From NCBI GenBank assembly GCA_963723855.1, contig CAVRSI010000011.1, forward strand, positions 122,181-186,180: a DNA stretch of 64,000 nucleotides, given 5' to 3'. The translations under genes and the position numbers were made by a program. The stretch comes from an uncultured Actinomycetes bacterium (GTDB lineage: Bacteria; Actinomycetota; UBA4738; HRBIN12). The notes beneath the pieces are model-generated. The model was not told the origin of the DNA. It did no database searches and saw nothing but the letters and a program-made list of their open reading frames with translations. Every line of letters starts with the position of its first letter. The stretch's first letter is position 1. Positions 1 to 61,357 of this stretch are shown here, piece after piece.

Positions 1-4172
<4,172 letters not shown>

Positions 4173-34124: not shown

Positions 34125-37100
34125 CCGGCCTCGCCCGCCACCGACGCCGCCGCCTCCGCGAACGAGAGACGCGACTGCGACGCGCCCCCGCTCGCGGTTG
34201 CGTGGTGCTCCTGGATCGAGCGCGGTTCGCTCGGTCCACCTCGGAGCGCCTCGATGCCGCGAACGGCCGCGAACACGCCCGGCAGGGTGGTGATGCACGG
34301 TACCCCGGCCGTCGCGGTCGCCGTTCGGATGTAATAGCCGTCGCTCCGCGGACCGCGACCGAACGGCGTGTTGATCACGAGGTCCACCTTCCCACCGCGG
34401 ATCAGGTCCGCCACGTTGTGGGGTCCCTCGGACACCTTCGCGACCCGCTCCACGACGATGCCGGCTCGCTCCAGCACGCCGGCGGTGCCGCTCGTCGCGA
34501 CCAAGCGGAAGCCGAGATCGGCCAGCCGTTTCGCCGGGAAGACGATCGCCCGTTTGTCGCGGTTGGCCACCGACACGAACACGGTGCCACTCGTCGGAAG
34601 GCCGGCGCCGGTCGACACGAGCGCCTTCGCGAGCGCCATCCCGGGATCCCTGTCGATCCCCATGACCTCGCCGGTCGACTTCATCTCCGGCCCCAAGACC
34701 GTATCGACGCCGGGGAACCGGCCGAACGGCAGGACCGCCGCCTTCACCGCGGTGTACGGGAGATGCCGGTAGTGATGGGGGTCCGCCGGCAGCACGCCGT
34801 CGGCCGCAAGCTCCGCGAGCGTCCGGCCAGTGAGCACGAGCGTGGCGATCCGCGCGAGCGAGACGCCGATCGCCTTCGCGACGAACGGCACCGTACGGGA
34901 GGCGCGCGGGTTCGCCTCGAGGACCCATATCCGCTCGTCCTTGACCGCGAGCTGCAGGTTCAGCACCCCCTGGACGCCCAAGCGGCGCGCGAGACGACGG
35001 GTGATGTCTTCGATCTCGTCGAGCTCGTCGTCCGAGAGCGTGGCCGGAGGGATCTGGCACGACGAGTCGCCGGAGTGCACGCCTGCCTCTTCGATGTGCT
35101 CCATCACGGCGCCGATGAACACGTCGGCGCCGTCGCACACCGCGTCGACGTCGACCTCGATCGCGCCCTCGAGGAACCGGTCGATGAGGACCGGATGATC
35201 GGGCGAGGCCTCAGCGGCCGTCCTGACGAACGTCTCCAGGTCGTCGGCGTCGTAGACGATCTCCATCGCCCGTCCACCCAGGACGTAGGACGGCCGGACG
35301 ACCACCGGGAACCCGATGCGGGCGGCGATCGCCCGTGCCTCCGGCAAGGTCCGCGCCTCGCCGTGCGGCGGCGCGGCGATATCCAGCTCGGCGAGGAGCT
35401 CAGCGAACTTGCCGCGATCCTCGGCGAGGTCGATCGCCTCGGGACGCGTGCCCAGCACGGTGAACCCTTCCTCCTCGAGCGTGCGCGCCAACCTGAGCGG
35501 GGTTTGACCGCCGAACTGCACGATCACACCCACCGGCCGCTCCGCGTGGCAGACCGCGAGGACGTCCTCCGCGGTGACGGGTTCGAAGTACAACCGGCTC
35601 GACGTGTCGTAGTCGGTCGAGACGGTCTCGGGGTTGCTGTTGACCATGACCGACTCGAACCCGGCCTCCTCCAACGCGAACGCCGCGTGCACGCACGCGT
35701 AGTCGAACTCGATGCCCTGGCCGATCCGGTTCGGACCCGACCCCAGGATCACCACGCGCGGTCTCGACGAGGGAAGGACCTCGGTCTCCTCTTCGTACGT
35801 GGAGTAGTGGTACGGCGTGCGCGCCGCGAACTCGCCGGCGCACGTGTCGACGGTCTTGAAGACGGGAGCCACCCCGAGCGCCTCGCGATGACGTCGCACC
35901 GATGCATCGGTCGCGTCCGTCAGGTCCGCGATCCGCGGATCGGAAAGGCCCAAGCGCTTCGCCGCTCGCAGCTCGTCGGCGCCGAGGGTGGACAGCGGAC
36001 GGCCGCGGAGCGCGCTCGCGCCCTCGACCACCTGCGCGATCTGATCCACGAACCACGGATCGATCGACGAGACCTCTGCCACTTCATCGACCGTGTGACC
36101 CGCCAGCAACGCGGCCTCCACGAGGAGCAGCCGGCCCTCGGTGGCGGTCGCGACCGCCGCCAACGGTCCGGGAGTCGTCGCACCCAGATCGAAGCCGCCT
36201 TTCTCCAGACCACGCCACGCCTTGCCGAGCGCCTCTTTGAACGTGCGGCCGATCGCCATCACCTCGCCCGACCGACTTCATGGTCGACGTGAGCTCGGGG
36301 TCGGCTCCCGGGAACTTCTCGAACGCGAACCGCGGGATCTTCACGACCACGTAGTCGAGCGTCGGCTCGAACGCCGCCGGCGTCTCCCCGGTGATGTCGT
36401 TCGCGATCTCGTCCAGCCGGTAGCCGACCGCCAACAGCGCGGCGATCTTCGCGATCGGGAACCCGGTGGCCTTCGAGGCGAGCGCCGACGACCGGGACAC
36501 GCGCGGGTTCATCTCGATGAGGACCATGCGCCCGTCACGCGGGTGCACGGCGAACTGGACGTTGGAGCCGCCGGTCTCGACGCCGATCGCGCGGATGCAT
36601 CGGAGCGCCGCGTCCCGCATGAGCTGGTACTCCACGTCCGTCAGCGTCTGCACGGGAGCCACGGTGACGGAGTCGCCCGTGTGCACGCCCATCGGGTCGA
36701 CGTTCTCGATCGAGCAGATGATCACGCCGTTGTCGTCGCCGTCCCGCATGACCTCCAGCTCGAACTCCTTCCAGCCGGCGATCGACTCCTCGACCAAGAT
36801 CTCGCCGACCGGGGAGATCTCCAGGCTCCGCCGCGCCAGGTCCCCGAGCTCCTCGCGCGTGTGCGCGAACCCACTGCCGCCGCCCCCGAGCGTGAACGAC
36901 GGCCGGACGATCACCGGATAGCCGATCGCGTCGCCGAGCGCCAGCGCCTCGTCGAGGGTGTGCGCCACCTCCGCCCGCGGCACCTCGAGTCCGGCCTCGA
37001 GCATGGTCCGCTTGAACCCGCTGCGATCCTCGGCACGGTGGATCGCCTCCAGGCTCGCGCCGATCAGGCGGATCCCCAAGCGGTCCAGGTCGCCGGACTC

Positions 37101-37409
37101 GGCCAGCGCGACGGCGACGTTCAATCCCGTCTGACCACCGAGCGTCGGCAACAACGCATCCGGGCGCTCGCGCTCGAGCACGGCGAGCACGGATGCGGGA
37201 TCGAGCGGTTCGATGTACGTCCGGTCGGCGAACTGCGGGTCGGTCATGATCGTCGCGGGGTTGGAGTTCACCAGCGACACGTGGAACCCCTCGCGCCGAA
37301 GCACCTTGCACGCCTGGGTGCCCGAGTAGTCGAACTCGCACGCCTGCCCGATCACGATCGGCCCCGAGCCGATCACCATGATCGACCGGATGTCGGCGCG
37401 TCGCGGCAT
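34121..37409 (-). CDS. carB: Carbamoyl-phosphate synthase large subunit; apparent frameshift near 36268
   Basis: The N-terminal ~448 aa ([30 protein letters not shown]...) is in the 36084..37940 frame. The remaining ~713 aa ([11 protein letters not shown]... through the MGS-like domain) is in the 34121..36262 frame. The junction is KSVG|EVMAIGRTF, where an extra G in a GGG run breaks the frame. Confidence 0.93.
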
Positions 37410-38557
37410 CAGCTGTGCTCCATGAGATCGCGGAAGTCCTGGAACAGGTAGCGCGAATCGTGCGGTCCGGGCGCCGCCTCGGGGTGGTACTGCACCGAGA
37501 ACGCCGGGACGTCGACGCAGCGGAGCCCTTCGAGCGTGCCGTCGTTCAGGTTCCAGTGGGTGAGCTCCGCGTCGCCGTAGTCGGTCGCCGCCACCGGGAT
37601 CGCGCCTTCGGTGCGCGCCCATCCCTGCGGGTCGACGGCGAAGCCGTGGTTGTGACTGGTGATCTCCACGACGCCGGTCCGCAGGTTCTTCACCGGCTGG
37701 TTCACACCGCGATGGCCGAACCGCATCTTGAAGGTCCTTCCACCGAGGGCCAGCGCGAGCAGCTGGTGGCCGAGGCAGATCCCGAAGATCGGCACCTTGC
37801 CGATGAGGCCCCGGACGGCGGCGATGCCGTAGGACGTGACCGCGGGGTCGCCGGGCCCGTTCGACAGGAACACCCCGTCGAAGCCCCCGGCGGCGATCTC
37901 CGCGGCCGGGGTCTCCGCCGGGAACACGGTGGTCTCGCAACCGGTGGCGGCCAGCCGTCGCAGGATGTTGCGCTTCATGCCGTAGTCGTAGGCGGCGACC
38001 CGGTACACGGCGCCGTGCGAGCGGTCCACCGGGCCAGCGAGCGTCGCGGCCTCATACGGCTGGGCGGCCGACACCGTCCGCGCGAGATCGGCACCCTCCA
38101 TCCCCGGCGAGTCCTGGACCCGTTGCACCAGTGAGGCGGCGTCCACGTCGATCGTCGAGATCGCGGCGCGCATCGCCCCGTGTTCGCGGAGCCGGAGCGT
38201 GAGCCGTCGGGTGTCGATCCCCTCGATCCCTACCACGTTCGCGGTGGACAGCTCGTCGGCGAGGCTGCCGTCGGCTCGCCAGCTGGAGGCCCGGCGCGAC
38301 GCCTCCCGCACGACGAACCCCGACACCTGCACCCGGACCGACTCGGCGTCCTCGCGGTTGACGCCGTAGTTCCCTTGCTGCGGGGCGGTCATCGCCACGA
38401 TCTGTCCTGCGTACGACGGATCGGTCAGCACCTCCTGGTACCCGGCCATCCCGGTGTTGAAGACGGCCTCGCCGAACGCCTCCCCGTCCGCCCCGAACCC
38501 CGTTCCGGAGAAGACCGTGCCGTCCTCCAGGGCGAGGAGCGCCGGCGGTCCGGTCAT
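37409..38557 (-). CDS. carA: Carbamoyl-phosphate synthase small subunit (glutamine amidotransferase)
   Basis: About 382 aa starting [18 protein letters not shown], with the GATase triad region [10 protein letters not shown]. It is the downstream part of an 815-aa composite ORF in the track. Confidence 0.93.
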
Positions 38558-39852
38558 CTGGTGGCCTTCCCGTTCGTCACGGTCAGCTCGCCCCGCAACA
38601 TCGTGTGGACGACCCTGCCGCGCACCGTCCTGCCGAGGAACGCCGAGTTCCGGCTCTTCGACACGAAGGGCGCCTCCACGACCCACTCGACCCGTGGGTC
38701 GAACACCACGAGGTTGGCGGGCCGGCCCGGCTCGATCGGCCCGCCGTGCTCGGCCGCCCCAAGGATGCGAGCCGGCGTCGTCGACAACGCCTCGAGCGCG
38801 CGGGACATGGTCAGGATGCCCGGCTCGACGAGCTCCGTGAGGACGGCCGCGAGCGCCGTTTCCAGTCCGATCGTTCCGGGCGGCGACTGATCGAACTCGG
38901 CCTCCTTCTCCTCGACCGCGTGGGGCGCGTGGTCCGTCGCGATCGCGTCGATGGTCCCGTCGGCCACGCCCGCGCGGAGCGCGTCGCGATCCTCGGGGCT
39001 CCGGAGCGGCGGGTTCACCTTGAGGTTCGTGTCGTAGGTGACGAGGTCGTCGTCGGTGAACACCAGATGGTGCGGGGTCACCTCGGCGGTCACACGGATA
39101 CCCTCGGCCTTGGCGCGACGCACCAGCTCGACGGAGCGGGCCGACGACAGGTGGCAGACGTGGAGCCGCGTGCCGGTCATCCGCGCGATCGCGAGGTCCC
39201 GGGCGACGATCGACTTCCTCCGCCTCGGCGGGCTGGCCCCGCAGCCCCAAGGAGTAGGAGTGGAAGCCCTCGTGCATCTGGCCGTTCTCGGCGAGCGACG
39301 CGTCCTCGCAATGCTCGGCGATGACCACGTCGTCGAACGCCTTCGCGTAGACGAGCGCGTTGCGCAGGAGGCGCGCCGTGGGCACGCATCTCCCGTCGTC
39401 GCTGAACATCCGAACTCCCGCCTCGACCATCTCGCCGATCTCCGCGAGCGACTCGCCGTCGAGGCCCTTCGTGATCGCGCCCACCGGGAACACGTCGCAG
39501 AGGCCCGCGGCCGCGGCCAGGTCCCGGACCTCATGGACGACGCCCGCGTGATCGGCGACCGGTTCCGTGTTGGCCATCGGCGCGACCGCCGTGTACCCGC
39601 CGATCGCGGCCGCCCGCGTGCCGGTCTCGATCGTCTCCTTGTGCTCGAACCCCGGCTCCCGCAGATGCGTGTGCATGTCGACCAGGCCCGGGGACACGAT
39701 GAGTCCGGCGCAGTCGATGACCTCTGCGTCGCCCGCCTCGAGGGCACCCTCTCCGATCGCGGCCACCCACCCGCCCTCGACGAGGACGTCCCCGACGACA
39801 TCCACGTCGGCTGCCGGGTCGACGATCCTGCCGCCCCGCAGGATCAGTGCGG

Positions 39853-39856
<4 letters not shown>
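38554..39856 (-). CDS. pyrC: Dihydroorotase; apparent frameshift near 39222
   Basis: The N-terminus [14 protein letters not shown]...[10 protein letters not shown]... is in one frame up to ...GQPAEAEEV. The continuation [22 protein letters not shown]...DHAPH... is in the 38554..39801 frame. Deleting one base restores the frame. Confidence 0.9.
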
Positions 39857-41549: not shown

Positions 41550-41816
41550 ATGGAATGGGGCATCGTCGCGGTGATCGCGGTCGCCGTCATCTTCGGCGTC
41601 AACAAGTTGCCGGACATCGCGCGCAACTTCGGGCGCGCCCAGGGTGAGTTCAAGAAGGGCCTGAAGGAAGGCGCCGTGGACGACGACGGCGGAGTCCACC
41701 GAGCCGAAGAGCGAGTCCTAGTCCGCTCCGGCGTCCACCTGGGTCTGCGGTCCGGTTCCCGGGCGACCCAGCTCCCGGGCGATCCGCCCGAGGATCCCGT
41801 TCACGTACCGTCGTGA
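41550..41816 (+). CDS. tatA: Twin-arginine translocase protein TatA/E
   Basis: Starts MEWGIVAVIAVAVIFGVNKLPDIARNFGRAQGEFKKG. The 3' end is uncertain because the ORF overlaps the convergent nusB by about 100 nt. Confidence 0.7.
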   Translation: MEWGIVAVIAVAVIFGVNKLPDIARNFGRAQGEFKKGLKEGAVDDDGGVHRAEERVLVRSGVHLGLRSGSRATQLPGDPPEDPVHVPS

Positions 41817-42163
41817 CTCGTCGGACGACAGCTCCGTCGCCGCCTCCACCGCCTCGCTGATCGCGACCGACGTGGGGATGTCGGGCCGGTGCATCAGCTC
41901 GAAGACGGCCACACGCATGATGGTTCGGTCGAGGGTCGCCATGCGCGCCACGGTCCAGCCCTCGGAGTGCTCCTCCAGCAAGGGGTCGATCTCCGAGAGA
42001 TGGTCCTGCACGCCCCGCACGAGCTCCTCGGCGAACGGCGACACCGAGCGGCCGGCCTCCCGCCAATCGGCGAGCACCGCGTCCCCCGGCGTCTCGGTGA
42101 TGTCGGACTGGTACAGGATGTCGAGCGCGGTTCGCCTGGCCTCGCGCCGGTTGGTCACGCCTT
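41718..42163 (-). CDS. nusB: Transcription antitermination factor NusB
   Basis: About 148 aa from a GTG start ([19 protein letters not shown]...). The GTG overlaps the efp stop (GTGA). Confidence 0.85.
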
Positions 42164-42722
42164 CACGCGCTCGATGTACTCGCCCGTCCGCGTGTCGACC
42201 TTGATCTTCTCGCCCTCCTCCACGAAGAGCGGCACCTGCACGACGATCCCGGTCTCGAGCTTCGCCGGCTTGTAGGCGCCGGTCCGCGTGTCGCCCTTCA
42301 CGCCCGGGTCCGTCTCGGTGATCGGTGAGGACCATCGAGGCCGGCAGGTCGACGCCGATGGGCACGCCCTCGTGCACGGTCACCTGCGCCTGGCCGCCCT
42401 CCACGAGGTAGCCGCCGGCGTCGCCCACGAGCGCTCCCGGAACGTGGATCTGGTCGTACGTCTCGAGATCCATGAACACGTAGTCCTCGCCGTCGCCGTA
42501 GAGGTACTGCATGTCCTTGCGCTCGACGATGGCCAGGCCGACCTTCACCCCGGCGTTGAACGTCTTCTCCGCGACGGCCCCCGTCTTCAGGTTCCGCAGC
42601 TTCGTCCGCACGAAGGCGCCGCCCTTCCCGGGCTTCACGTGCTGGAACTCGATCACCTGGAAGAGCGTGCCGTCCAGCTCGAGGGTCATCCCGTTCTTCA
42701 GTTCGTTCGTGGAAACACTCAC
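42160..42722 (-). CDS. efp: Elongation factor P; apparent +1 frameshift near 42318
   Basis: The N-terminus [48 protein letters not shown]... is in frame until ...SMVLT. The C-terminus [55 protein letters not shown] is in the adjacent frame. An extra base lies in ACCGATCACC. Confidence 0.9.
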
Positions 42723-44259: not shown

Positions 44260-45310
44260 TTACGAGCCTCGTCGTCGGTGACGTCGTCGACCACGATCGG
44301 ACGTCCGATGTCTTGCAGGAGGACGAAGCGAACACCACCGCGGATACTTCTTGTCGAGCCTGAAGGCCGAGAGGATGTCGTCGGGGTCCGGAAGCGATCC
44401 GTCCGTCTCCAGCCCGAACGAGGCGAGCAGCCTCCCGGTGCGTGCGGCCAGGCCGTCGGGCGCCACGTCGCGGGCCTCCGCCAGCCGCGCCGCGAACACC
44501 ATGCCGACGGACACGGCCTCGCCGTGGGAACGGCCCGCGAACGCGTCCAGCCGCTCCAACGCGTGCCCGAGCGTGTGTCCGTAGTTGAGGATCAGGCGCC
44601 GACCGTCGTCCCGCTCGTCCTCTGCCACGATCTGGGCCTTCGCGGCGACGCAGCGAGCCACGATCCACTCGAGGGTCGCCGGGTCCCGCGCCAACACCGC
44701 CCCCGGGTCGCGCTCCAGCACGTCCAGGAGCCCACCGTCGAGGATCAGGGCGTACTTCACGACCTCCGACAGGCCGGAGCGGAACTCTCGCTCGCCGAGG
44801 GTTGCCAACGTGTCCACGTCGGCGACGACGAGCCGAGGTTGCGCGAACGCCCCTACGAGGTTCTTGCCCTCCGGAAGGTTGACGGCCGCCTTCCCGCCGA
44901 TCGCGGCGTCGACCTGTGCGAGCAGCGTGGTCGGCACCTGGACGAACGGGACGCCCCGCATGTACGTCGACGCGACGAACCCGGCGAGATCGCCGACCGC
45001 TCCCCCTCCCAGCGCGATCACGGGATCGTCACGATGGGCCTCCTGGGTCGCGAGCTGGTGCAGCAACGTCTCGTACACGCGCAGGGTCTTCGCGTCCTCG
45101 CCCGCGGGAACGACCAAGGGAACCGTGGCGAGGCCCGCCTCGCTCAGGGACGCCGCGAGCGGCTCCAGCCATCGAGCCGACACCGTGCCGTCGGCGACGA
45201 CGAACGCGGTGGAGGCGCCCGGGCAGCTCGGGGAGCAAGGAGCCGACCGACGCGATCGTGCCCGAGCCGACGCAGACGTCGTAGGACCGCCCCGGGATCG
45301 GGACGGTCAC
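44260..45310 (-). CDS. aroB: 3-dehydroquinate synthase; apparent frameshift near 45215 in a CCCGGG run
   Basis: The N-terminal ~32 aa ([31 protein letters not shown]) is in one frame. The remainder ([20 protein letters not shown]...[11 protein letters not shown]...) is in the 44260..45183 frame. Confidence 0.88.
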
Positions 45311-45804
45311 GCGGACCAACGAAGCTCCTCCACGATGGCGTCGGCGACCTCGGCGGGCGAGGCGGTCCCGTCGACCACGTGCGCCGCGAACTCGCGGTAG
45401 AGCGGCTCCCGAGCCGCCAGGAGGCGTTCCAGGTCGCCCTCCGTCCGGATGAGCGGCCGGTCCGCCGCGGGACGCACACGGGACCGGAGATCCTCGAGCG
45501 GCACGTCGAGGAACACCGCCACGCCGGTGTTCCGCAGGGTGATGCGGTTGGCGGGCTCCAGGACGACGCCGCCGCCGCACGCCACCACGGCCGGGTCGTG
45601 CATGCTCGCGTCCGTCAGCGCGGCGGCCTCCCGGGCGCGGAAGGCCGCCTCTCCCTCGGCGGCGAAGATGTCGGCGACGCTCGACCCCGTCTCGCGCTCG
45701 ATCTCCGAGTCGAGGTCGATGAACGGGACGCCCAACCGCCCCGCGAGCTCCTTGCCCACGACCGACTTGCCCGCTCCCGGCATCCCCACCAGGTAGACGA
45801 TCAT
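45307..45804 (-). CDS. aroK: Shikimate kinase
   Basis: About 165 aa starting [22 protein letters not shown]-loop kinase. Confidence 0.9.
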
Positions 45805-46953
45805 GCGAGCGTCTCCACGTACGCGTCCAGGTTCCGCCGCACCTCGGCCAGCGAGTCCCCGCCGAACTTCTCCACGACGGCGTTCGCGAGCTCGAACGCG
45901 ACGACCGCCTCGCCGACGACCCCTCCGGCCGGCACCGCGCACACGTCCGTCCGCTGCTTGATGGCGACCGCGGCCGCGCCCGTGGCCAGGTCCACGGTGG
46001 CGAGCGGACGGGGAACCGTGGAGAACGGCTTCATGGCGGCGCGCAGGCGGATCGGCTGGCCCGTCGACATGCCGCCCTCGATGCCCCCCGCGCGAGCCGT
46101 CTTGCGCCCGATGCGCCCGTCCCGGACGCACGATCTCGTCGTGGGCGTTCGATCCGGTCCGGCCGGCCGACGCGAACCCGTCGCCCACCTCCACGCCCTT
46201 CACCGACTGGATGCTCATCAGGGCCAGCGCGAGCCGCGCGTCGAGCTTGCGGTCGTAGTGCACGTACGAGCCGAGCCCGGGAGGCGCGCCGTACGCCACC
46301 ACCTCGAAGACCCCGCCGACCGTGTCCTTCGACCGCCGGATCCGATCGATCTCGGCGACCATCCGGTCGGCGGTCGCCTCGTCCGTGCAGCGCACCGGCG
46401 ATGCGTCGATCGCGTCCAGGTCGGCCAGGACCGGGACGCGCGACCGCGCCGGGACCTTCACGCTTCCGATCTGCACGACGTGTGAGAGCACGCCGATCCC
46501 GATCTCCGCGAGGAACGCCTTGCAGCAGGCCCCGACGGCGACCCGCGCGGCCGTCTCGCGCGCGCTCGCCCGCTCCAAGACGTTGCGCACGTCGTCGAAG
46601 CCGTACTTCTGCGTCCCGACCAGGTCCGCATGGCCCGGCCGCGGACGGGTGAGGCGCGCATCCGGATCCTCGGCGCCCTCGACGGCCATCAGGTCCGCGT
46701 ACTTCGCCTCGAACTCCACGTTGGGGATCGTGATGGCGATCGGGGAGCCCAGGCTGGTCCCGTGGCGGACGCCCGTCAAGATCTCGAACCGGTCGGCCTC
46801 GAACCGCTGCCGGCCTCCGCGCCCGTAGCCATGGCGGCGCCTCGCGAGCTCCCCGGCGATCTCCTTGGGAACGATCCCCACACCCGCCGGGAGGCCCTCC
46901 ACGATCGCGACCAGCGCTTTGCCGTGCGATTCGCCGGCCGTGAGCATCCGCAA
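45801..46953 (-). CDS. aroC: Chorismate synthase; apparent frameshift near 46112
   Basis: The N-terminal ~270 aa ([25 protein letters not shown]...) is in the 45307..46965 frame. The C-terminus ([24 protein letters not shown]...DAYVETLA) is in the 45801..46070 frame. One base is missing in CCGGG/ACGGG. Confidence 0.9.
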
Positions 46954-47014
46954 CATGGCGTTCATCTTACGGACCGGCCGAGGCGCCGGATGGGCGGGGG
47001 CGTGGTCTTGATGG

Positions 47015-47050
47015 GGCGGGGGCGGCCCCGAAGAACGAGGCCGCCCCCGC
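47015..47050 (-). terminator. GC-rich stem-loop (GGGGCGGCC-loop-GGCCGCCCC) between the pil MNOP-like operon and aroC
   Basis: There is a perfect 9-bp inverted repeat with no U-tract, so intrinsic termination is uncertain. Confidence 0.35.
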
Positions 47051-47100
47051 GCCGGCGACCGCTCCCCCCGTGGGCGGATCGCCGGGACCCGGAACCCGTC

Positions 47101-47760
47101 TACTTCGACGGGACGAAGCAGAGCGTGAAGGACTGATCTCCGAACAGGAACGTGGCACAGTCGCCGGCGACGTCCCGCAGCTCGAAGTTCCCCCCCGCGA
47201 ACGTGTCCCCTTCAGCCGGGTGGTAGACCGTGCCGTCGACCGACGACCGAGGCGTGCTGCACGCCGTTGGAGGTGTACGTGTCGATCAGCACCACCTCAT
47301 GACCGCCGATGGTCGTCGACGATCCGTTCGTCGGCGGCAGGGTCGGCCCGGTCGGTCCGGGGCCGGTCGTCCCACCGGTGGACCCCGTCGGCCCGGGACC
47401 CGTCGTCCCACCGGTGGACCCAGACGGCCCCGACGGCCCGGGTCCGGTGCCGGTGCCGCCGGTGGACCCTCCGGGCGCCGGGAACTGCGGCGGGATCGAG
47501 AACGGATCGCGCCCGGAGAAGATCGGGCTCGGGGCGGGTCCGCCGCTCTGCGACGGGGACACGCTGCCGGTCGGTCCGGTCGACGGAACGCCGGTGACGC
47601 CGGTCGGACCACCGCTCACCGATGGCCCCACCGAGAGCGGCGGCAAGGCCGATCCGCCGCCCTTCCCCAGCTGACCGAGAAGGAGCAGCGCGAGGACCAG
47701 CACGCCGGCCACGATGCCCCCGATCTTCAGCGCCTTACGGTCGCGTTCGTTGAGAGGCAT
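47101..47760 (-). CDS. PilP-like type IV pilus protein: N-terminal TM helix, Gly/Pro/Ser/Thr-rich tandem-repeat linker and a small C-terminal domain; apparent frameshift near 47225
   Basis: Reads [28 protein letters not shown]..., then a linker ([13 protein letters not shown] x2), then ...[19 protein letters not shown]. The continuation [46 protein letters not shown] (stop about 47101) is in the adjacent frame. Confidence 0.5.
47351..47421 (-). repeat. Two copies of a 36-bp in-frame tandem repeat encoding [12 protein letters not shown] inside the PilP-like gene
   Basis: Near-identical 35/36-nt units at 47351-47385 and 47387-47421. Confidence 0.8.
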
Positions 47761-47763
47761 CCG

Positions 47764-48414
47764 TCAGGCTCCTGGCTTCGTCTCGGCTGCCGGCGAAGGG
47801 CTCGTGGGCGCGGTCGTCGCGGTCGTCGCGCCGGCCGCAGAGGTCGGGCCAGGCGATGAACCCGGGCCAGCGCTCTCGTCGCTCGTGTAGATGTCGACCG
47901 AGGCGGTGAGGGTCAACAGGCTCGAGTTGCTTTCGGAGGGCGAGGGCGAGATCGACACCGCGGTCGTCTTCGCGGCGCGCGGGAGCGTCTCGACCTTGAA
48001 CAGGAACTCCGTGAGCGCGAAGTAGGAACCGGTGGTTGAGATGGCGTTGGCCACGGTGGACAGTCCCGTGGCCGGGTCGAAGATGGGATTGGTCGGCGTG
48101 ATCGTGACGACGTCGACCCCCGACTCCACGGCTGCGTTCTGCATCAGCAGCATGAACCCTTGCTGGTCGACGGTCGGCGGGATCGCTTGCTGGACCTTCC
48201 GGATGGTCTCCCGGTTCGCCGGGGCCTCTGCCTGGGCCGCCTGAAGAGCCGCCAATTGCGCACCCAAGGTCGCCTGCTGACCCTGCGCCTCCGCGAGAGC
48301 GGCGTTCGCATCCTTCACCTGACCCATCTTCGGCAGCACCAGGAAGAACCCCACCAGCACGACCGCGGCGGCGGCGGCGATCCCGGCGAACAGCGGCGCG
48401 CGCTTACCCCCCAC
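47764..48414 (-). CDS. pilO: Type IV pilus assembly protein PilO
   Basis: Has a TM helix (LFAGIAAAAAVVLVGFFLVL), a coiled-coil region and a periplasmic domain. Probable GTG start at about 48414. Confidence 0.7.
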   Translation of the reverse strand: MGGKRAPLFAGIAAAAAVVLVGFFLVLPKMGQVKDANAALAEAQGQQATLGAQLAALQAAQAEAPANRETIRKVQQAIPPTVDQQGFMLLMQNAAVESGVDVVTITPTNPIFDPATGLSTVANAISTTGSYFALTEFLFKVETLPRAAKTTAVSISPSPSESNSSLLTLTASVDIYTSDESAGPGSSPGPTSAAGATTATTAPTSPSPAAETKPGA

Positions 48415-49034
48415 CCTGCACGTCCCCTCGGCCGCGAGGCGTGAGCGCGTCCTCCGAAAGGTCGACCCCGCTGGTGAAGGTGTACAAGCCCGGTATTCGG
48501 ACCGGTCTCGGTGGCGCTCGAGACCCAAGGGTTGACCCATCCCTTAACCGATTCGAGCCTCGTGATCCAGCTCGCTAGGCTTTCGAACCCGTCCGCCGCC
48601 CCGCCGGCGGTGAACGACCCCACGAACGTCGTGGTGGTCGACGCCGCGGCTGTCCCGGTCACCGGCGCCGTGAGCGAGGCACTGAACGAAGAGAGGTACG
48701 CGTCCGATGGGATCGTGCGGGAGAGGTCCATCAGCATCTCCGAGAACGACACTTCGCCGACATACGCCTTCGCGAGCAGCGCCTCCTGCGCGGCGGCCTG
48801 CTCCTGGAGCTGCTGGAACTCCTGCAGCTGACCGATCTGAGCCTGGAGCTGCTGGTTCGTTGCGTTCTGTGCCGCGATGTCGTCGTTGATGCCCGCCAGC
48901 TTCTGGCTCTGCAGGAACCAGAAGGCGATGAGCAGCACGACCACCGCCGCACCGGCCCCGACGATCAGTGTGGTCTGCTGTTTGGTCTTCTGCCGTGCGC
49001 GAAGCTCAGGGGGAAGGAGGTTGACCTGACTCAC
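48404..49034 (-). CDS. pilN: Type IV pilus assembly protein PilN; possible frameshift near its 3' end (about 48460)
   Basis: Starts MSQVNLLPPELRARQKTKQQT with a TM helix. The ORF tail after ...SSATETGPNTG looks out of frame. The adjacent frame gives LYTFTSGVDLSEDAL... ending at TAA 48404, 8 nt before the pilO GTG. Confidence 0.8.
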
Positions 49035-50086
49035 GCGAAATGCCTCCCGGGGATGCCCAGGCCGACGGCCACCGCGAGCACCGGCTCCGCTTCGGCAAGC
49101 GCCTCCTCAGACAGGGACAGCTGCGACTTGGCCCGGCGGAACACGTGGCCGCGCTCGATCGTCGCGGGAACCCGTTCCTGCAGGAGCTCCAGGAAGCCCT
49201 GCAGCTTCGACCCGCCGCCGATCACCAGGACCCGCCCGATCCGGGCCCCACGCGTCTGGGCCGTGTAGAACTCGAGCGAGGACCGAACCTCGTCGACGAA
49301 GTTCTGCGCCCGCTGCATGGCGGCGCGATGGACCTCTTCCAGGTCGGGACCGCCCTCGACGGCCTCGCCGCGCTTCAGACGCTCGGCGACGTCGGCCTCG
49401 ACCCCGAAGTTCCGGGCGATCGCCAACGTGATGTCCCGGCCGCCCGACGGCAGGATCCGGACGAACCGCGTCACGCCCTTCTCGTGGACCAGGATGTTCG
49501 TGACCGTGGCGCCGATATCGACGATGGCCTCTTCGCCACCCTCTTCGTCCTCCATGCCGACCTCCGGCATGCCGACCGCGCGCGCCATGGCGAACGGAAC
49601 CAGGTCGACGCCGATCGGCTCGAGCTTCGCGGCGAGCGCGACATCGACGACCGTGTTCACCATCGCGCGCTGCGCGGCGACGAGGATGAGGCGCAGCATG
49701 CGGCGCCCCTCCTGCTCGAACTCTCCGAGCGGATCGAAGTCCAGGACGGCGTCCTCGACCGGCATGGGGATGAACTCCTGCGCCTGGAACCCGAGCGACG
49801 CTCGGAGCTCCTTCTCGGGGAGCCACGGGAGCGCGATCTCGCGCACCACCACCCGTTGGTTCCCGACACCCATGTAGACCTGCCGGCTCTTGAAGCCTCC
49901 GCGCTGCCAGAGCTCGCGCAACGCCTCGCTGACGACCTCGGGCTGGCGGATCTCGCCCGCCTCGACCGCCCCCTCCGGCAACGGCACCTGCGCCGCCCGA
50001 ACGACCACGGGGGTGTCGCCGCCCTGGAGCTCGGCGGCGCGCACGGCCGTCGCGCCGATATCCAGTCCGACCCGTACCTTCGCCAT
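49031..50086 (-). CDS. pilM: Type IV pilus assembly ATPase-like protein PilM
   Basis: 351 aa starting MAKVRVGLDIGATAVRAAEL, an actin-like fold typical of PilM. Confidence 0.9.
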   Translation of the reverse strand: MAKVRVGLDIGATAVRAAELQGGDTPVVVRAAQVPLPEGAVEAGEIRQPEVVSEALRELWQRGGFKSRQVYMGVGNQRVVVREIALPWLPEKELRASLGFQAQEFIPMPVEDAVLDFDPLGEFEQEGRRMLRLILVAAQRAMVNTVVDVALAAKLEPIGVDLVPFAMARAVGMPEVGMEDEEGGEEAIVDIGATVTNILVHEKGVTRFVRILPSGGRDITLAIARNFGVEADVAERLKRGEAVEGGPDLEEVHRAAMQRAQNFVDEVRSSLEFYTAQTRGARIGRVLVIGGGSKLQGFLELLQERVPATIERGHVFRRAKSQLSLSEEALAEAEPVLAVAVGLGIPGRHFA

Positions 50087-50293
50087 CTACGGACCCTCCG
50101 TCCGAACGGAGCGCTCCTCCAGGAAGCGCTCCAGGTCTGTCTCGCGCAGCCGGTAGTTCTTGCCGACGCGCACGGCCGGAAGCTCGCCGCTCTTGATCAG
50201 CCGGTAGACCGTCATGTTCGAGACCCGCATCGCGTTCGCGACCTCGGACACGGTCAGGAGACCGCCCGGAACGAACGGCTGCGACTCGCTCAC
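50087..50293 (-). CDS. Small MerR/excisionase-family HTH DNA-binding protein (BldC-like, 68 aa)
   Basis: GTG start; reads LTVSEVANAMRVSNMTVYRLIKSGELPAVRVGKNYRLRETDLERFLEE. It sits immediately upstream of pilM and is preceded by the SD GGAGGAGGG. Confidence 0.7.
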   Translation of the reverse strand: MSESQPFVPGGLLTVSEVANAMRVSNMTVYRLIKSGELPAVRVGKNYRLRETDLERFLEERSVRTEGP

Positions 50294-50383: not shown

Positions 50384-50743
50384 CCCCTTACCAAACACCA
50401 GGGAGCAACCGCAGTCAAACATCTCGCACAGGGAAGTTTCCGCAGGTCCGAACGGGTGTTCGGACAAGACCAGCTGCGCTCGGTCCCGAGAGTGGGTCGG
50501 CCTGCTGCCGGATTCATGTAAGAAGGGTGCCGAACCTGTTCAGTTAAGATTGACACCGCCGACGTACGGTGGCAGGAGTGGCGCAGGTCGATGCCACAAC
50601 ATCGCCCAGTTCGACGCCTTCCTCACGCCGAAATGGATAGGTCGGAACCGGACTTAGGACGAAGGGACGGCCGGAAGAGCACCTTTTTGCCGCTGTTGCG
50701 CCCTGGTCGGGTGACATAGATTGACCCAGTGAGGAAGCTTCCG

Positions 50744-51138
50744 ATGACGAAACGACGGTCGATCGCACGGGGGCTCGGGCAAGCAGTCGCCCGTTCGCAA
50801 CGCCCGCCCTTCCCCGATTGCCCGACCTCGAGACCGAGGGACCGGTGCATCAGCTGCTCATGTCCGGGGAGCGCGATGACGGCGGCTGGGGCCTCATCGG
50901 GGCGTTCTGGCTCTCGGTCGACGGCCGGCGCGGCGGGTTCATCGTGTCTCCGGGATTCCTTGGCATGGTAGCGAGATGGTCCGCAGCCTTCGAAGCGCGC
51001 TCGACCGCGGCTGGACCGAGGAGCGGATACTTCTCCTGCTGGGAGGGTCAGGTCGGCACCGTTGGCACCTACATGATCGATCCCGAGACGCCCGCGGAGA
51101 ACCTGGTCGAAGTCGCCCGCCGTGTAGGGGCGCTCTAG
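50744..51138 (+). CDS. Hypothetical small protein (possibly frameshifted between 50729 and 50818 frames)
   Basis: An SD (GTGAGGAAG) precedes the ATG at 50744. The downstream frame 50818..51138 has high GC3 and a plausible sequence (...GWGLIGAFWLSVDGRRGGFIVSPGFLGMVARW...). No recognisable domain. Confidence 0.3.
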
Positions 51139-51469
51139 CGGCGATCGGTGGTCATCCGCTTCCAGGCGCTCCGCTTCCCGCCAGCGTTGCCCTATCGGGC
51201 TCGCGTTCCATGTCCATCGCGATGCGTACTCAGCGATCGGTATCGAGAACACGATCCTTTCCGGTGGGGCAGAACGGGTGTCAGGATGTCGTGGCTGCCT
51301 AGTCCCGTACGCTCGGAGCGGAGCCGCAGAGAGGTAGGCGACCCCTGAGCCCTCGCCACCAGGCGGCGGCGCACGCCTCTCGATGGGTTGCGGCAAGAGG
51401 TCCGGCTGAGGACCCGTGCCGCCGCTCGGGTCACGTTGCCGTCGGCGAGACGTCCTGCGACAACGCGCC

Positions 51470-52288
51470 TTAACCGTCCGCGTTTGCCTCACTCTCACCG
51501 TGGAGGGACGGGTTGCTGATCAGTTCGGCGATGGCTAGCCCAAGCAGAACCAGTCGTCGTCGGGGAGGATCCCGCCTGCTGCGACGGCGCCGGCGCTTGC
51601 TGGCCCAAGATCTCAAGACAGATGCATCGGCTTCGCCAAGGCTTGGCGCATTCACCAAGGTGCCTTGAACAACCACCCCGATCGTGCAGGTGCCGCCGAC
51701 GCTGTAATAGAAATCCCCATTGAGTGCGGTGTTGATCGCCCCTGTCACGTTGAAATCGCCGAACACGCTCCTGTAACAAGTAGGTGCTCCGGCTGGTGGG
51801 GTGATATTGGCCGTCGTCGTAGCAGTCGTCGATGTGAGCAGGTATCTGCCCGCGTTCGCGTCCAGGGTGATGCCGGTAGCTGTCACCGAGATGCCTGTTC
51901 CGGGGCCGATGGACGCGAAGGTCGCGCTTGCGGCCGAGCAGGTCACGACGTCGGGCGAGATCACCCCGGTCAGCGAGCAGAGGGTCATCGTGGCCGCATT
52001 CGCGCCGTCGTAGACCTTGTCGGCCGCAGTCACGGTTGCGGTCACCGGCCGATACAGCGTCCCGCCTTTGGCCCCATAGCCTATGCAGAGCGCCTCACTT
52101 GGAAACGTTGTTCCGTCCGCGCGGACGAGCGTTTGCCAGCCGCCCTTCTGACAGAGTTTCGCATTCGTGGAGTTGCTGCCAGCGAAAGCGATTCCGACGT
52201 TGACGACGAGCATCACAACCACAAGGCCGAACGTCGCCACGATCGAGACCATGCGTCGAGCCCTTCGGCGCTCACGTCTCGCCCTCAT
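51470..52288 (-). CDS. Secreted/membrane-anchored protein with an MBG/YDG-type adhesin-repeat signature, in a lower-GC island
   Basis: Has an Arg-rich N-terminus plus hydrophobic segment (MVSIVATFGLVVVMLVVNVGIAFA) and a Cys-containing region. It carries a KVYDG...LTGVISPDVVTCSAASATFAS...GRYLLTSTTATTTANIT block typical of MBG/YDG repeats. Local GC is about 55-60%. The C-terminal ~60 aa may be out of frame. Confidence 0.5.
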   Translation of the reverse strand: MRARRERRRARRMVSIVATFGLVVVMLVVNVGIAFAGSNSTNAKLCQKGGWQTLVRADGTTFPSEALCIGYGAKGGTLYRPVTATVTAADKVYDGANAATMTLCSLTGVISPDVVTCSAASATFASIGPGTGISVTATGITLDANAGRYLLTSTTATTTANITPPAGAPTCYRSVFGDFNVTGAINTALNGDFYYSVGGTCTIGVVVQGTLVNAPSLGEADASVLRSWASKRRRRRSRRDPPRRRLVLLGLAIAELISNPSLHGESEANADG

Positions 52289-52656
52289 GATTCACCCTTC
52301 TTCATGGTGCCCGAACCGTCATGACGTCTCGCCCGATCCAGGGACTTGACAACCCCCCTTCCGTCCTACTATCGACCGGAGACAGCGCCTCGCCCCATCG
52401 GTCTTCGGTCGGCGAATCCGGGCCACAAGGCGTAGCACTCGCCAATCAGTCAGCGTGAACACCTAAGCAACTGAGGGCTTGCATGACTCGGAAGACATCA
52501 CTCGGGATGAAGCAAGCCGGGTCCATCGGAGGATTGGGACCTTATCGGCTCCTTGTGTCGCCGCCTTCACCGGTCTCCTCTGTCGTCGCCTTCACGTGGT
52601 AAACGGCCTCGACTCCACGGAAGGAACTTGGCCGATCGGCCCGAGCGGGGCAAGCC

Positions 52657-53436
52657 TCACGATTCGCGCTCACGTGACCGAACGGAGGTACCAGTCTGCG
52701 ATCGTCGCACCCCAAGCGTCGCTGTGATGGCGCCCGCCGCAAGGAACGGCCCGAATGGGATCGCGCTCTTTCGCCCGCGGCCGGCGAGCAGGGCGACGAG
52801 GCCTCCCAGACCCCCGAGCAAGACTGCGACGCCGGCCGCCACAGCGACGCAGCGCAAGCCGAGCGCTCCCATCATCAAGCCGATCAGCGCCGTCAGTTTC
52901 ACGTCGCCCATGCCGAGGCCTCGAGGCGCTATCAACGCGATGAGCATGAACAGACCCCCGTAGGCGAGCACACCCACGATCGCGCGCAGCGGGGCCAGCG
53001 GTTGGCCGATCGCCCACCCGAGGACGATCGCGGCGGCGAACGCTGGGAACGCGGGATAGGTGATCCGGTTAGGGATGATGCGATGCTCCAGGTCGATGGC
53101 ACCCACGGCGAGCATCGTCGCGCAGAAGGCGACAGAACCACGATCAGATGAGATCTGTGGATAAACGATGGCGACCCCCGCGAACAAGGCCGCGGTCCCC
53201 CCCTCCAGCACGGGATATCGGACCGGGATCGGTGCACGGCACGAGCGACACCGACCGCCGAGAAGGAGCCACGAAAGGACCGGGATGTTGTCGCGACTCT
53301 TGATCTCGGCACCGCAGTGCGGGCAGCGCGACCGCGGTGAGACGATCGATTCCTTCTTCGGGATCCGGTCGACGACGACGGTCAGGAAGCTCCCGACAGC
53401 GAGTCCGAACGGTACCGCGACGAGGGCACGGATCAC
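52657..53436 (-). CDS. pilD: Type IV prepilin peptidase (A24 family) PilD
   Basis: Has N-terminal zinc cysteines (CPHCGAEI...CRSCRAPI), catalytic Asp motifs including GMGDVKL, and multiple TM segments. Confidence 0.9.
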   Translation of the reverse strand: MIRALVAVPFGLAVGSFLTVVVDRIPKKESIVSPRSRCPHCGAEIKSRDNIPVLSWLLLGGRCRSCRAPIPVRYPVLEGGTAALFAGVAIVYPQISSDRGSVAFCATMLAVGAIDLEHRIIPNRITYPAFPAFAAAIVLGWAIGQPLAPLRAIVGVLAYGGLFMLIALIAPRGLGMGDVKLTALIGLMMGALGLRCVAVAAGVAVLLGGLGGLVALLAGRGRKSAIPFGPFLAAGAITATLGVRRSQTGTSVRSRERES

Positions 53437-58982: not shown

Positions 58983-60199
58983 TTACTGGATCAGCTTGAT
59001 GATGTTGAACATCGGCATGTAGAGCGCGATGACCGCGGCTCCCACGGCTCCTCCGATGATCGCGATCAGGAGCGGCTCGATCAGCGACGTCAGGGCGTCG
59101 ACCGACGCCTCGACCTCCTGGTCGTAGAACTTCGCGACCTTCTCGAGCATGGTGTCGACCTGGCCGGTCTCCTCACCCACCGCGAGCATCTGCACGACCA
59201 TCGGCGGGAACACGGCGTGCCTCGCGAGCGGCTTGGCGATCGACTCACCTTCGCGGACGCTCGCCTGCACGTCGACGACCGCCTTCGACATCACCTTGTT
59301 GTTCACGGTGTCCGCGACGATGTCCAGCGCCTGCAGGATCGGGAACGCCCGAGCGCAGCAGCATCGCCGGCCGTGCTGGAGAAGCGGGACAGCGCGGTCT
59401 TGTGGAAGAGCGTGCCGAAGATCGGGATCTTCAGCTTGAGCGCGTCGAGCGTCGCCCGTCCGGCTTCCGTCTTCTTGTACCGCCTGAAGAGGAACGACGA
59501 ACACGAACGTGAGCATGATGAGGAGTCACCAGTACTTCTTCACCGCGTCCGAGGCCATGAGCAGGACCCGGGTCGGCAGCGGCAGCGTGCCGCCGAGCTG
59601 CGTGTAGATGGTCTTGAACTGCGGCACGACGAACAGCAGCATCGCCGACATGATCAGGACGACCAGCGCGACGACCGCGACCGGGTACGTCATGGCCGAC
59701 TTGATCTTCTGCCGCAGGTGCACCTCGCGCTCGAGCACGTCGGCCAGCCGGAGCAGCACGTCGTCCAACATCCCGCCCGTCTCGCCCGACTTGACCATGG
59801 CGATGTAGAGGTCGTTGAACGCCTTGGGGAACTTCGCCATGGCCACGGACAGGCTCGAGCCCTGCTCGACGTCGTTGCGGACGAGCGTCAGGGTCTTCGC
59901 GAGCTCCTTGTTGCTGACCTGGTCGGACAGGATCGACAGCGCGCGCAGGATCGGCAGGCCGGAGTTGACCATGGTGGCGAACTGCCGGGAGAAGATCGCG
60001 ACTTCCTTGAGCTTGATCTTCGCCGGCCTGATGTTGATCTCGAGGTTGAGGCCCTTCTTCTCCTTGCCGACCTCGAGCGGGGTGTACCCCATCTCGCGGA
60101 GGCGCTCGAGGACCAGGCGCTCGTTGTCGGCGACGAGGGTCCCCGTGACGAGGTTCCCGGACTTGTCCCGGACCTTGTACTGCGTAGGACTCAGACATA
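58983..60199 (-). CDS. pilC: Type IV pilus inner-membrane platform protein PilC (GspF family); at least three apparent frameshifts (about 60185, 59530, 59400)
   Basis: The ATG overlaps the pilT stop. The first GspF repeat (...FSRQFATMVNSGLPILRAL...) is in the 59526..60482 frame. The second repeat (...FPILQALDIVADTVNN...LIEPLLIAIIGGAVGAAVIALYMPMFNIIKLIQ) is in the 58983..59516 frame. The central TM segment is in a third frame. Confidence 0.85.
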
Positions 60200-61357
60200 G
60201 TCGCCTCCCGACATCATCGAGCCCATCGCCATGGCTCCGCCGCCGTCCATCGGAGGCGGAGCGGAGGCGCCGCCGACCAGCCGCTGGAGCTCCTCGGGGT
60301 CGTGGCAGCGCTCGAACGCCACCTGCTGGTTGATGCGGCCGGCCTTCACGTGCGCGGCGATCGACATGTCCATCGTCTGCATCCCGTACCGGCCGCCGGC
60401 CTGCATCGCGGAGTAGATCTGGTGGACCTTGCCCTCGCGGATCAGGTTGCGGATGGCCGGGGTCGTGACCAGCACCTCGCACGCCGCGACGCGTCCCTGG
60501 CCGTCGGTCGTCTGGAGCAGCTGCTGCGTGACGACACCCTGAAGCGTGGTCGCCAGCTGCACCCGCACCTGCTGCTGCTGGTGCGGTGGGAACACGTCGA
60601 TGATGCGGTCGATCGTCTGCGGCGCGTCCTGCGTGTGCAGGGTCGCGAAGACCAGGTGGCCGGTCTCGGCCGCCGTGATCGCGGTCGAGATCGTCTCGAG
60701 GTCTCGCATCTCACCGACCAGGATGACGTCGGGGTCCTGACGCAGGACGTGCTTCAGGGCCTGGCCGAACCCGTGCGTGTCGGCGCCGACCTCGCGCTGG
60801 TTCACGATGCACTTCTTGTGCTTGTGCAGGAACTCGATCGGGTCCTCGACGGTCATGATGTGGCCGGCCCGCTCCTCGTTGACCACGTCCACCATGCCGG
60901 CGAGCGTGGTCGACTTGCCCGAACCCGTCGGGCCCGTCACCACGACGAACCCACGCGGGAACCGGGCGAGGTCGGCGACCACGCCCGGGAGGCCGAGGTC
61001 TTCGAGCTTCTTGATCTCGAACGGGATGAGCCGGAACGCCGCGCCGAGCGCGTCGCGCTGCTGGTAGACGTTCACACGGAAGCGCGCCTGACCCGGCAGG
61101 GAGTAGGACATGTCCAGCTCCAGCTCCTGCTCGAACCGCTCGCGGAGCTTCTGCGGCAGGATCGCGTAGATCATGCCCTGAAGCGCCCGGGGCGTCAGCG
61201 GAGGATACTTCTCCAGCCGCTCCAGCTCGCCGTTCACACGCACGACGGGCGGGGTCCCCACCGTGAGGTGGAGGTCCGAACCGCCAACCTCCAAGAGCGC
61301 CGTGAGCAGCTCCGGGATCGGGATATTCACGTCGTCTTGATCTGCTTGCATCACCAT
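60191..61357 (-). CDS. pilT: Twitching motility ATPase PilT
   Basis: 388 aa with Walker A GPTGSGKST, the PilT AIRNLIRE motif, and an intact frame. Confidence 0.95.
   Translation of the reverse strand: MVMQADQDDVNIPIPELLTALLEVGGSDLHLTVGTPPVVRVNGELERLEKYPPLTPRALQGMIYAILPQKLRERFEQELELDMSYSLPGQARFRVNVYQQRDALGAAFRLIPFEIKKLEDLGLPGVVADLARFPRGFVVVTGPTGSGKSTTLAGMVDVVNEERAGHIMTVEDPIEFLHKHKKCIVNQREVGADTHGFGQALKHVLRQDPDVILVGEMRDLETISTAITAAETGHLVFATLHTQDAPQTIDRIIDVFPPHQQQQVRVQLATTLQGVVTQQLLQTTDGQGRVAACEVLVTTPAIRNLIREGKVHQIYSAMQAGGRYGMQTMDMSIAAHVKAGRINQQVAFERCHDPEELQRLVGGASAPPPMDGGGAMAMGSMMSGGDYV

Follow-up and report, generated by a model that had tools for sequence, protein, structure and literature searches.

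A complete type IVa pilus cluster, encoded on the minus strand of the 64,000-nucleotide stretch of uncultured Actinomycetes DNA analyzed here (hereafter the window; contig CAVRSI010000011.1 of GenBank assembly GCA_963723855.1), ends with a gene whose product is probably the PilP-equivalent fourth subunit of the PilM-PilN-PilO alignment subcomplex of a type IVa pilus, in a monoderm without a secretin. All of the evidence is computational. In Gram-negative bacteria, proteins with the fold of its end domain connect the pilus machine with the pore in the outer membrane (secretin). In a monoderm organism of this phylum no such pore is expected, and the monoderm, secretin-less status assumed here draws on that knowledge of the phylum together with the open reading frames (ORFs) tested in the window and in related loci. 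No secretin gene was found beside the PilP-like gene in the 12-kb related loci, and the Secretin domain was detected in none of the window ORFs tested (a genome-wide search was not made). Reviews of type IV pili describe PilP as absent from monoderms, which makes sense where a secretin to link to is lacking (PMC6916266). The conservation of a PilP/GspC-type protein behind pilO, in about 480 clusters of uncultured Actinomycetota, suggests that its C-terminal domain, of the type known as HR, has a job to do without a secretin. It also makes the protein a candidate in the question of how the pilus machine takes up its position in a thick cell wall, or gets through it.

The genomic position of the gene ties it to the pilus machinery. 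The following genes of the cluster were located in the window:

61359-63041, minus strand, pilB
60191-61357, minus strand, pilT
59526-60482 and 58983-59516, minus strand, pilC, split
52657-53436, minus strand, pilD
50087..50293, minus strand, HTH_17 DNA-binding gene, directly upstream of pilM
49031..50086, minus strand, pilM (Pfam PilM_2, E 1.8e-48; TIGR01175 above cutoff)
48315..49034, minus strand, pilN (weak Pfam PilN match plus position; tblastn synteny; 3' end out of frame in the window)
47764..48540, minus strand, pilO (Pfam PilO, E 8.6e-8; listed ORF, true start probably further downstream)

Pilin-like genes with N-methylation motifs are also present in the cluster, and downstream of the PilP-like gene follows an actinobacterial housekeeping block (aroC-aroK-aroB-aroQ-pepP-efp-nusB-pyrR-pyrB-pyrC-carA-carB). 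A scan of one genome per GTDB species, for which the narrower domain alignment was used because the full-length alignment gave no conserved stretch, identified 93 relatives, and all 80 of those listed were uncultured Actinomycetota/Actinomycetes metagenome-assembled genomes (MAGs). When related loci were searched by tblastn with the Pil proteins of the window, the gene order pilD-HTH-pilM-pilN-pilO-[PilP-like]-aroC was recovered throughout 82 loci, the nearest of which (L003, from MFD00822.bin.2.15) has 93% DNA identity to the window. Upstream of the PilP-like gene, pilM and pilN were found in all 76 loci whose flanks were long enough, and pilO in 74 of these 76; the linkage to pilMN(O) persists down to 42% PilM identity. 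A preliminary description of this DNA had already placed the gene directly after pilO, the position of PilP, and the distance is indeed very short: the gene starts 3 nt beyond the pilO stop codon (TGA, 47764-47766). The same description gave the gene as 47101-47760. A real minus-strand gene lies there, running from an ATG at 47758-47760 to a TAG at 47100-47102, and only the end had to be moved, by one base, out of the stop codon to 47100.

After repair of a one-base frameshift that is treated below, the gene and its surroundings read as follows:

47769..47773, minus strand, AGGAG Shine-Dalgarno sequence of the PilP-like gene, 8 nt upstream of the ATG and within the end of pilO (read from the sequence)
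47100..47760, minus strand, PilP-like gene, 661 nt (660 plus one extra base), 219 aa once repaired
47668..47748, minus strand, N-terminal transmembrane (TM) helix, residues 5-31 (AlphaFold2 helix with a per-residue confidence, pLDDT, above 90)
47515..47667, minus strand, linker 1, residues 32-82, Gly/Pro/Ser/Thr/Val-rich, predicted to be disordered (pLDDT ~50; family median 46 aa)
47500..47511, minus strand, RDPF motif, residues 84-87, within a 12-residue segment (D, P and F conserved in at least 90% of the family)
47311..47499, minus strand, linker 2, residues 88-150, Gly/Thr/Pro/Ser-rich, predicted to be disordered (pLDDT 48-57)
47350..47421, minus strand, two exact tandem 12-residue copies in linker 2 (36-nt units at 47386-47421 and 47350-47385, 32/36 nt identical)
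47103..47310, minus strand, C-terminal HR-like beta domain, residues 151-219 (AlphaFold models, Foldseek, hhalign with PilP)
47039..47060, minus strand, weak terminator-like hairpin before aroC, 40 nt after the stop codon (1 found versus 0.2 expected)

The AGGAG sequence inside the end of pilO points to translational coupling of the two genes. The layout shows a type II bitopic membrane protein with a short cytoplasmic N-terminus, one TM helix and the rest of the chain outside the membrane. The helix is preceded by a conserved cytoplasmic motif (MPLxxRDR+xL). No lipobox cysteine was found in the protein, and its N-terminal 200 residues contain no cysteine. Both the TM anchor and the Gly/Pro/Thr linker with a 36-bp tandem repeat had been recognized in the preliminary description, and both were recovered, the repeat by Tandem Repeats Finder at 47347-47430 (period 36, 2.3 copies, score 126). 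Long antisense "shadow" ORFs with high third-position GC content (GC3) run across the low-complexity linker (window 47309-47674 and 47230-47859, both plus strand), and a gene caller could pick them over the real gene.

Structure prediction links the end of the protein to PilP and its relatives. AlphaFold2 was run on a full-length alignment of 116 family sequences, and a separate model of the domain alone was also generated. In the full model an all-beta domain spans residues 148-214 with a pLDDT of 97-98 (91 in the domain-only model), the region around RDPF reaches an intermediate value of ~70, and the protein terminates 5 residues past the HR domain. As modelled, the domain is a small beta-sandwich with the PilP/GspC (HR) fold. 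Foldseek searches of the PDB with the domain-only model placed the following structures (prob, Foldseek probability; TM-scores normalized by query and by target; rmsd, root-mean-square deviation):

Rank 1, 3oss_C, GspC HR domain, prob 1.00, TM-score 0.66 query / 0.78 target, rmsd 2.5 Å
Rank 2, 4wfw, GspB, prob 0.96, TM-score 0.52 query / 0.49 target, rmsd 4.3 Å
Rank 8, 3jc8_Pa, M. xanthus PilP, prob 0.97, TM-score 0.60 query / 0.33 target, rmsd 3.9 Å
Rank 40, 2lc4, P. aeruginosa PilP, prob 0.75, TM-score 0.55 query / 0.42 target, rmsd 4.8 Å

With the full-length model, PilP of P. aeruginosa reached a prob of 0.94 (2y4y_B) and 0.92 (2lc4), and the rmsd to 3oss_C was 2.2-2.5 Å across both runs. 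A prob of 0.9 or higher was reached by a single superfamily of proteins, that of type II secretion systems (T2SS) and type IV pili. The two features on which the preliminary description had staked its assignment, a PilP-like beta-sandwich and a conserved linkage to pilMNO, were thus both recovered, with the GspC HR domain, GspB and PilP as the matches of highest probability. The DSSP pattern of the model sets the last hairpin at residues 201-206 and 209-214 around a two-residue turn, so Cys201 (47157-47159) and Cys214 (47118-47120), each conserved in at least 90% of the family, would pair across the two strands, in line with an extracytoplasmic domain stapled by a disulfide.

Sequence profiles provided evidence independent of the fold search. 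The family alignment was compared by hhalign with an alignment of 24 PilP sequences from Myxococcus, Neisseria and Pseudomonas, which resulted, with the full-length alignment of the family, in a match of 90.9% probability (E 1.2e-6) over the beta domain, whose register pairs 'h.V.LvDVF..G...AQV.VDgtvYtV.eGetFA.nF.L.SisG' with the core of the PilP beta domain. RDPF-like motifs also occur upstream of the PilP beta domains, as 'VGKRDPFRSPI' in M. xanthus and 'LRSPFQPPV' in Pseudomonas. A motif-anchored hhalign run that gave 97.8% was assigned no weight as evidence, since it is circular: its windows had been chosen for containing the motif. One family member has a subthreshold Pfam PilP match located on the HR-like domain, and subthreshold T2SSM matches in relatives map to the N-terminal TM segment.

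The protein belongs to a large family. A word-indexed search with the domain retrieved nine near-identical fragments only (48-100 aa), and an exhaustive profile search retrieved 480 clusters at E<1e-3, 123 of them at E<1e-10, with members mostly of 170-230 aa that carry the domain at the very C-terminus. Among the 116 aligned members, 'MPLSxRDRRxL' and a hydrophobic N-terminal helix are found in 109, the [RK]DPF motif in 106 and a pair of cysteines 13 residues apart in at least 96, within a domain of ~65 aa. Linker 1 is P/S/T/G-rich throughout the family and linker 2 has a median length of ~44 aa (range 22-98), with 21% G, 17% T, 16% P and 13% S. All of the named matches to the family were annotated as 'hypothetical protein', from Actinomycetota MAGs or metagenomes, and no meaningful Pfam domain was found in any of them; a cluster look-up of ten members returned neither a protein name nor a cultured host, and neither Pfam nor NCBIfam recognises the PilP-like protein of the window. 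The family is thus unannotated, and the existing alignment would suffice to build a family model. As for the repeats, the preliminary description had suggested that copy number could vary, and variation was seen between related species: in seven close relatives linker 2 measures 48-63 aa and its patterns differ (GGTTGPGPT-type units, GPVPT three times, SGSPSG-type units). Hence the gain and loss of repeats shape the linker while the motif and the domain stay fixed. Two variants of the domain were also observed, among P0040, P0042 and a subgroup of alignment A5: members of ~310 aa with two tandem HR-like domains (e.g., P0040), and a further subgroup with an additional Cys-x(7-8)-Cys pair where the domain begins, e.g., GCRQGEEVTCQG.

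Like PilP (Pfam PF04351), the protein is encoded immediately after pilO, directly downstream of pilM-pilN-pilO; it is tethered to the membrane, and its disordered N-terminal part carries R-[DS]-P-F-x-P and leads into a small C-terminal HR beta-sandwich. Its profile may also be remotely similar to that of PilP over the HR domain, with an hhalign probability of 90.9% for the full-length alignment and of 54.8% for the domain alone. Unlike PilP, it has a TM helix (the collected PilP sequences carry L-x-x-C lipoboxes), much longer linkers of low complexity that bear repeats, and a conserved Cys pair as the putative staple of the domain. Its gene is followed by aroC and not by pilQ, no secretin occurs among the window ORFs tested, and it falls below the threshold of the PilP family model (Pfam PF04351 / NCBIfam). 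The label PilP-like, which the preliminary description had used, can be kept for fold, position and architecture, and does not extend to the PF04351 model, the lipobox or an adjacent secretin gene. GspC (3OSS chain C) is the best structural match and is likewise anchored by an N-terminal TM helix, but here the HR domain is not followed by a PDZ or coiled-coil domain, the operon is pil and not gsp, and the secretin N0 domain to which the GspC HR domain binds has no counterpart in the window ORFs tested or in the loci. GspB/OutB (4WFW) has the same succession of TM helix, Pro-rich linker and C-terminal HR-like domain. However, the partners of GspB are GspA and the secretin GspD, neither of which is nearby here, the PilP-style RDPF motif context is missing from GspB as far as seen, and the threshold of the T2SSB family (PF16537) is not reached by our protein. 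In short, the protein would function in the manner of PilP, its build resembles that of GspB/GspC, and on defined features it is a member of none of the three families. We classed it as an unannotated, TM-anchored, long-linker and putatively Cys-stapled HR-domain subunit of the secretin-less type IVa pilus machines of Actinomycetota.

These likenesses could also be accommodated by a GspB/GspC-type scaffold that is not a PilP orthologue, that is, a TM-anchored HR protein, possibly acquired from or ancestral to T2SS-type proteins, that anchors the machine to the cell wall instead of stabilizing PilNO. We consider this unlikely. The GspC HR domain is the best structural match and GspB the next, the arrangement of TM helix, linker and C-terminal HR domain is theirs and not that of a lipoprotein, and subthreshold matches to Pfam T2SSB were found in 11 of the 116 members. 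In addition, a study of OutB reportedly describes GspB/OutB as a tether that holds the secretin to both the inner membrane and the peptidoglycan of the cell wall. On the other hand, the neighbours of the gene are pilMNO and not gsp, the PilP-type R-D-P-F motif is present, and the HR domain is not followed by the additional domains of GspC. Moreover, hhalign detects PilP, whereas the domain profile gave no signal with the single GspC and GspB sequences of E. coli K-12, although single sequences are too weak to expect one. This reading also differs from that of a PilP equivalent mostly in the name and in the partner that is stressed.

Several results weigh against a PilP equivalent. The hhalign match to PilP drops to 54.8% when the domain alone is used, Pfam PilP matches occur in only 4 of the 116 members (all subthreshold, best E 0.0037), and the repaired protein has no Pfam PilP match at E<=1 and no NCBIfam match. 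The Foldseek E-values are weak (0.02-1.3) and not significant alone, as expected for a domain of only 65 residues, so that the fold match alone is not proof. Binding to PilNO and the role of RDPF are drawn from analogy with PilP. Since there is neither a lipobox nor a secretin partner, the defining function of PilP, the link to PilQ, cannot apply; the absence of the secretin covers the tested window ORFs and the 12-kb loci of an organism known only as an uncultured MAG lineage of Actinomycetota. Some of these points would be equally at home with a coincidental likeness of fold, in which case the gene would encode an unrelated, wall-exposed protein with a small beta domain (for instance one that resembles adhesins, binds the wall or regulates pilus output) whose only tie to pilMNO is co-transcription. 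Other small beta folds, such as BCCP domains and Rpn13 Pru, were indeed retrieved at a prob of 0.3-0.6, no curated family was matched, and searches of PDB sequences with the family profiles returned nothing related, only chance-level matches (foot-and-mouth disease virus VP3, bleomycin-resistance protein, MetAP2). Yet four independent lines agree, namely the fold ranking, the hhalign match of 90.9%, the common motif and the fixed position after pilO, and every match with a prob of at least 0.9 falls into the one T2SS/pilus superfamily. A coincidence is, in our view, somewhat less probable still than a GspB/GspC-type scaffold.

A role for the protein as the PilP equivalent can be outlined from what is known of PilP. 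The unstructured N-terminal part of PilP packs on the coiled coil of PilN and PilO, and PilQ is bound at its N0 domain by the C-terminal beta-sandwich of PilP, as GspD N0 is by the GspC HR domain (PMC11525922). PilP is also among eight proteins that are sufficient for filament assembly without PilQ (PMC10191384). In the Actinomycetes protein, the TM helix would take the place of the lipid anchor of PilP, as it does in GspC and GspB, and linker 1 would be about long enough to run along the PilNO stalk. The [RK]DPF segment would then dock on the PilN-PilO ectodomains, by analogy with the N-terminal part of PilP, and so stabilize PilNO, the secretin-independent role of PilP. Linker 2 (63 aa, up to roughly 20 nm when fully extended) would carry the HR domain up to ~15-20 nm outward into the zone of the cell wall, where the domain, held together by a disulfide between Cys201 and Cys214, would have a binding partner that is not a secretin N0. 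The preliminary description had proposed that the domain may bind peptidoglycan or the pilus fibre. Candidate partners are the wall, the pilus or its pilins, another protein of the cluster, or further copies of the domain itself in a self-assembled collar around the fibre; confidence in any particular one of them is much lower than in the PilP-equivalent role. A broader and more tentative proposal is that HR-domain proteins may not be just secretin adaptors. This monoderm lineage of Actinomycetota might keep one as a fixed fourth subunit of PilMNO, reanchored by a TM helix and extended on long, possibly glycosylated repeat linkers, whose disulfide-stapled domains would form a collar or anchor in the wall zone that guides the pilus through the thick peptidoglycan. 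If true, this would mean a secretin-independent, possibly ancestral function of PilP, and it would offer a handle on how type IV pili cross the Gram-positive wall.

As it stands in the window, the gene is interrupted. The ORF that begins at the ATG ends at 47212 (182 aa), and the C-terminal domain, which ends in TLCFVPSK and the stop codon, is read in a different frame. The preliminary description correctly reported that a Cys-containing domain is encoded there, but treated the gene as uninterrupted; the frameshift was overlooked, and the dash in its quoted 'VQHA-VDG' masks the change of frame. The break was traced to one position:

~47245 (approximate, within a repeated TCGGTC context), minus strand, single extra base breaking the frame (DNA alignment with L003, L005 and L006)

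The minus strand reads GCCTCGGT[C]GTCGGTC, and the bracketed base is absent from L003, L005 and L006, which are close relatives with intact ORFs. Its removal yields a 660-nt ORF of 219 aa that reads ...HASVSVDGTVY..., and close homologues are uninterrupted across the site (...HA[ST]VSVDGTVY...). The ORF is intact in 65 of the 82 related loci; the 17 broken ones are mostly long-read MAGs. Two further relatives are interrupted at other positions, L001 within the RDPF motif and L002 at several points of the linker. The window has the look of a long-read assembly rich in indels. Several of its ORFs consist of neighbouring genes that are fused or fragmented as if by frameshifts:

41718-42722, 45307-46965, 37409-39856, 34121-36262, 58983-60482 and 14769-16223, fused or fragmentary ORFs, frameshift-type

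Fusions were seen of efp with nusB (EF-P N/OB domains plus NusB), of aroC with aroK (chorismate synthase plus shikimate kinase) and of pyrC with carA (dihydroorotase plus CarA), carB is truncated, pilC is split in two, and a SpoU methylase is joined to a HisKA fragment. The one-base frameshift is most likely an assembly error and not biology, since the base is absent from the aligned relatives, most related loci are intact, other copies break elsewhere, and efp, aroC, pyrC, carB and pilC show comparable breaks in the window. The same evidence from the relatives led us to reject a programmed frameshift, for which neither a slippery site nor a conserved shift position was found, as well as two separate small genes, as the 64-100 aa 'proteins' of gene callers would have it. 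It is very improbable that this genome harbours a true pseudogene or programmed shift leading to a truncated 182-aa protein without the end domain, as the extra base and the stop at 47212 would imply if taken as read, given the intact copies, the differing break sites in mostly long-read MAGs, the lack of any detected slippery site or conserved shift position, and comparable breaks or fusions in essential genes of the window (efp, aroC, pyrC/carA, carB, pilC). The database proteins with the HR-like domain (P0003-P0009) measure 48-100 aa and are often fragments from internal GTG or ATG starts. Public gene calls for the domain are often short because the linker is frameshifted in assemblies; entries of this size are artefacts that arise where long-read assemblies contain frameshifts. 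The tail of P0007 is out of frame, and P0009 appears to be chimeric, with the last 44 residues attached to an unrelated N-terminus.

Further observations concern the surroundings of the cluster. The HTH_17 gene encodes a helix-turn-helix protein of 68 aa (excisionase/MerR-like) and lies directly upstream of pilM in nearly all loci (L001-L082, at ~3000-3350); its product may be a regulator dedicated to the pilMNO-P operon. Between pilD and this gene, a region of ~2.2 kb in the window (~50460-52680) has no counterpart in L003, where only a short spacer is found; its GC content is 0.59-0.67 versus ~0.70, and it holds a TM-anchored YDG-domain protein (51470-52288). The pilus cluster adjoins the aroC-aroK-aroB-aroQ-pepP-efp-nusB block in every locus from L001 to L082 (window 52657-53436 to 43798), which suggests that the cluster was inserted there long ago and has been inherited vertically, and that it is not a mobile island. 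Elsewhere in the window, a protein with a response-regulator receiver and a GGDEF domain is encoded at 21643-22572; only positions 5-106 of the 161 in the GGDEF profile were matched, and the protein may be truncated by another indel.

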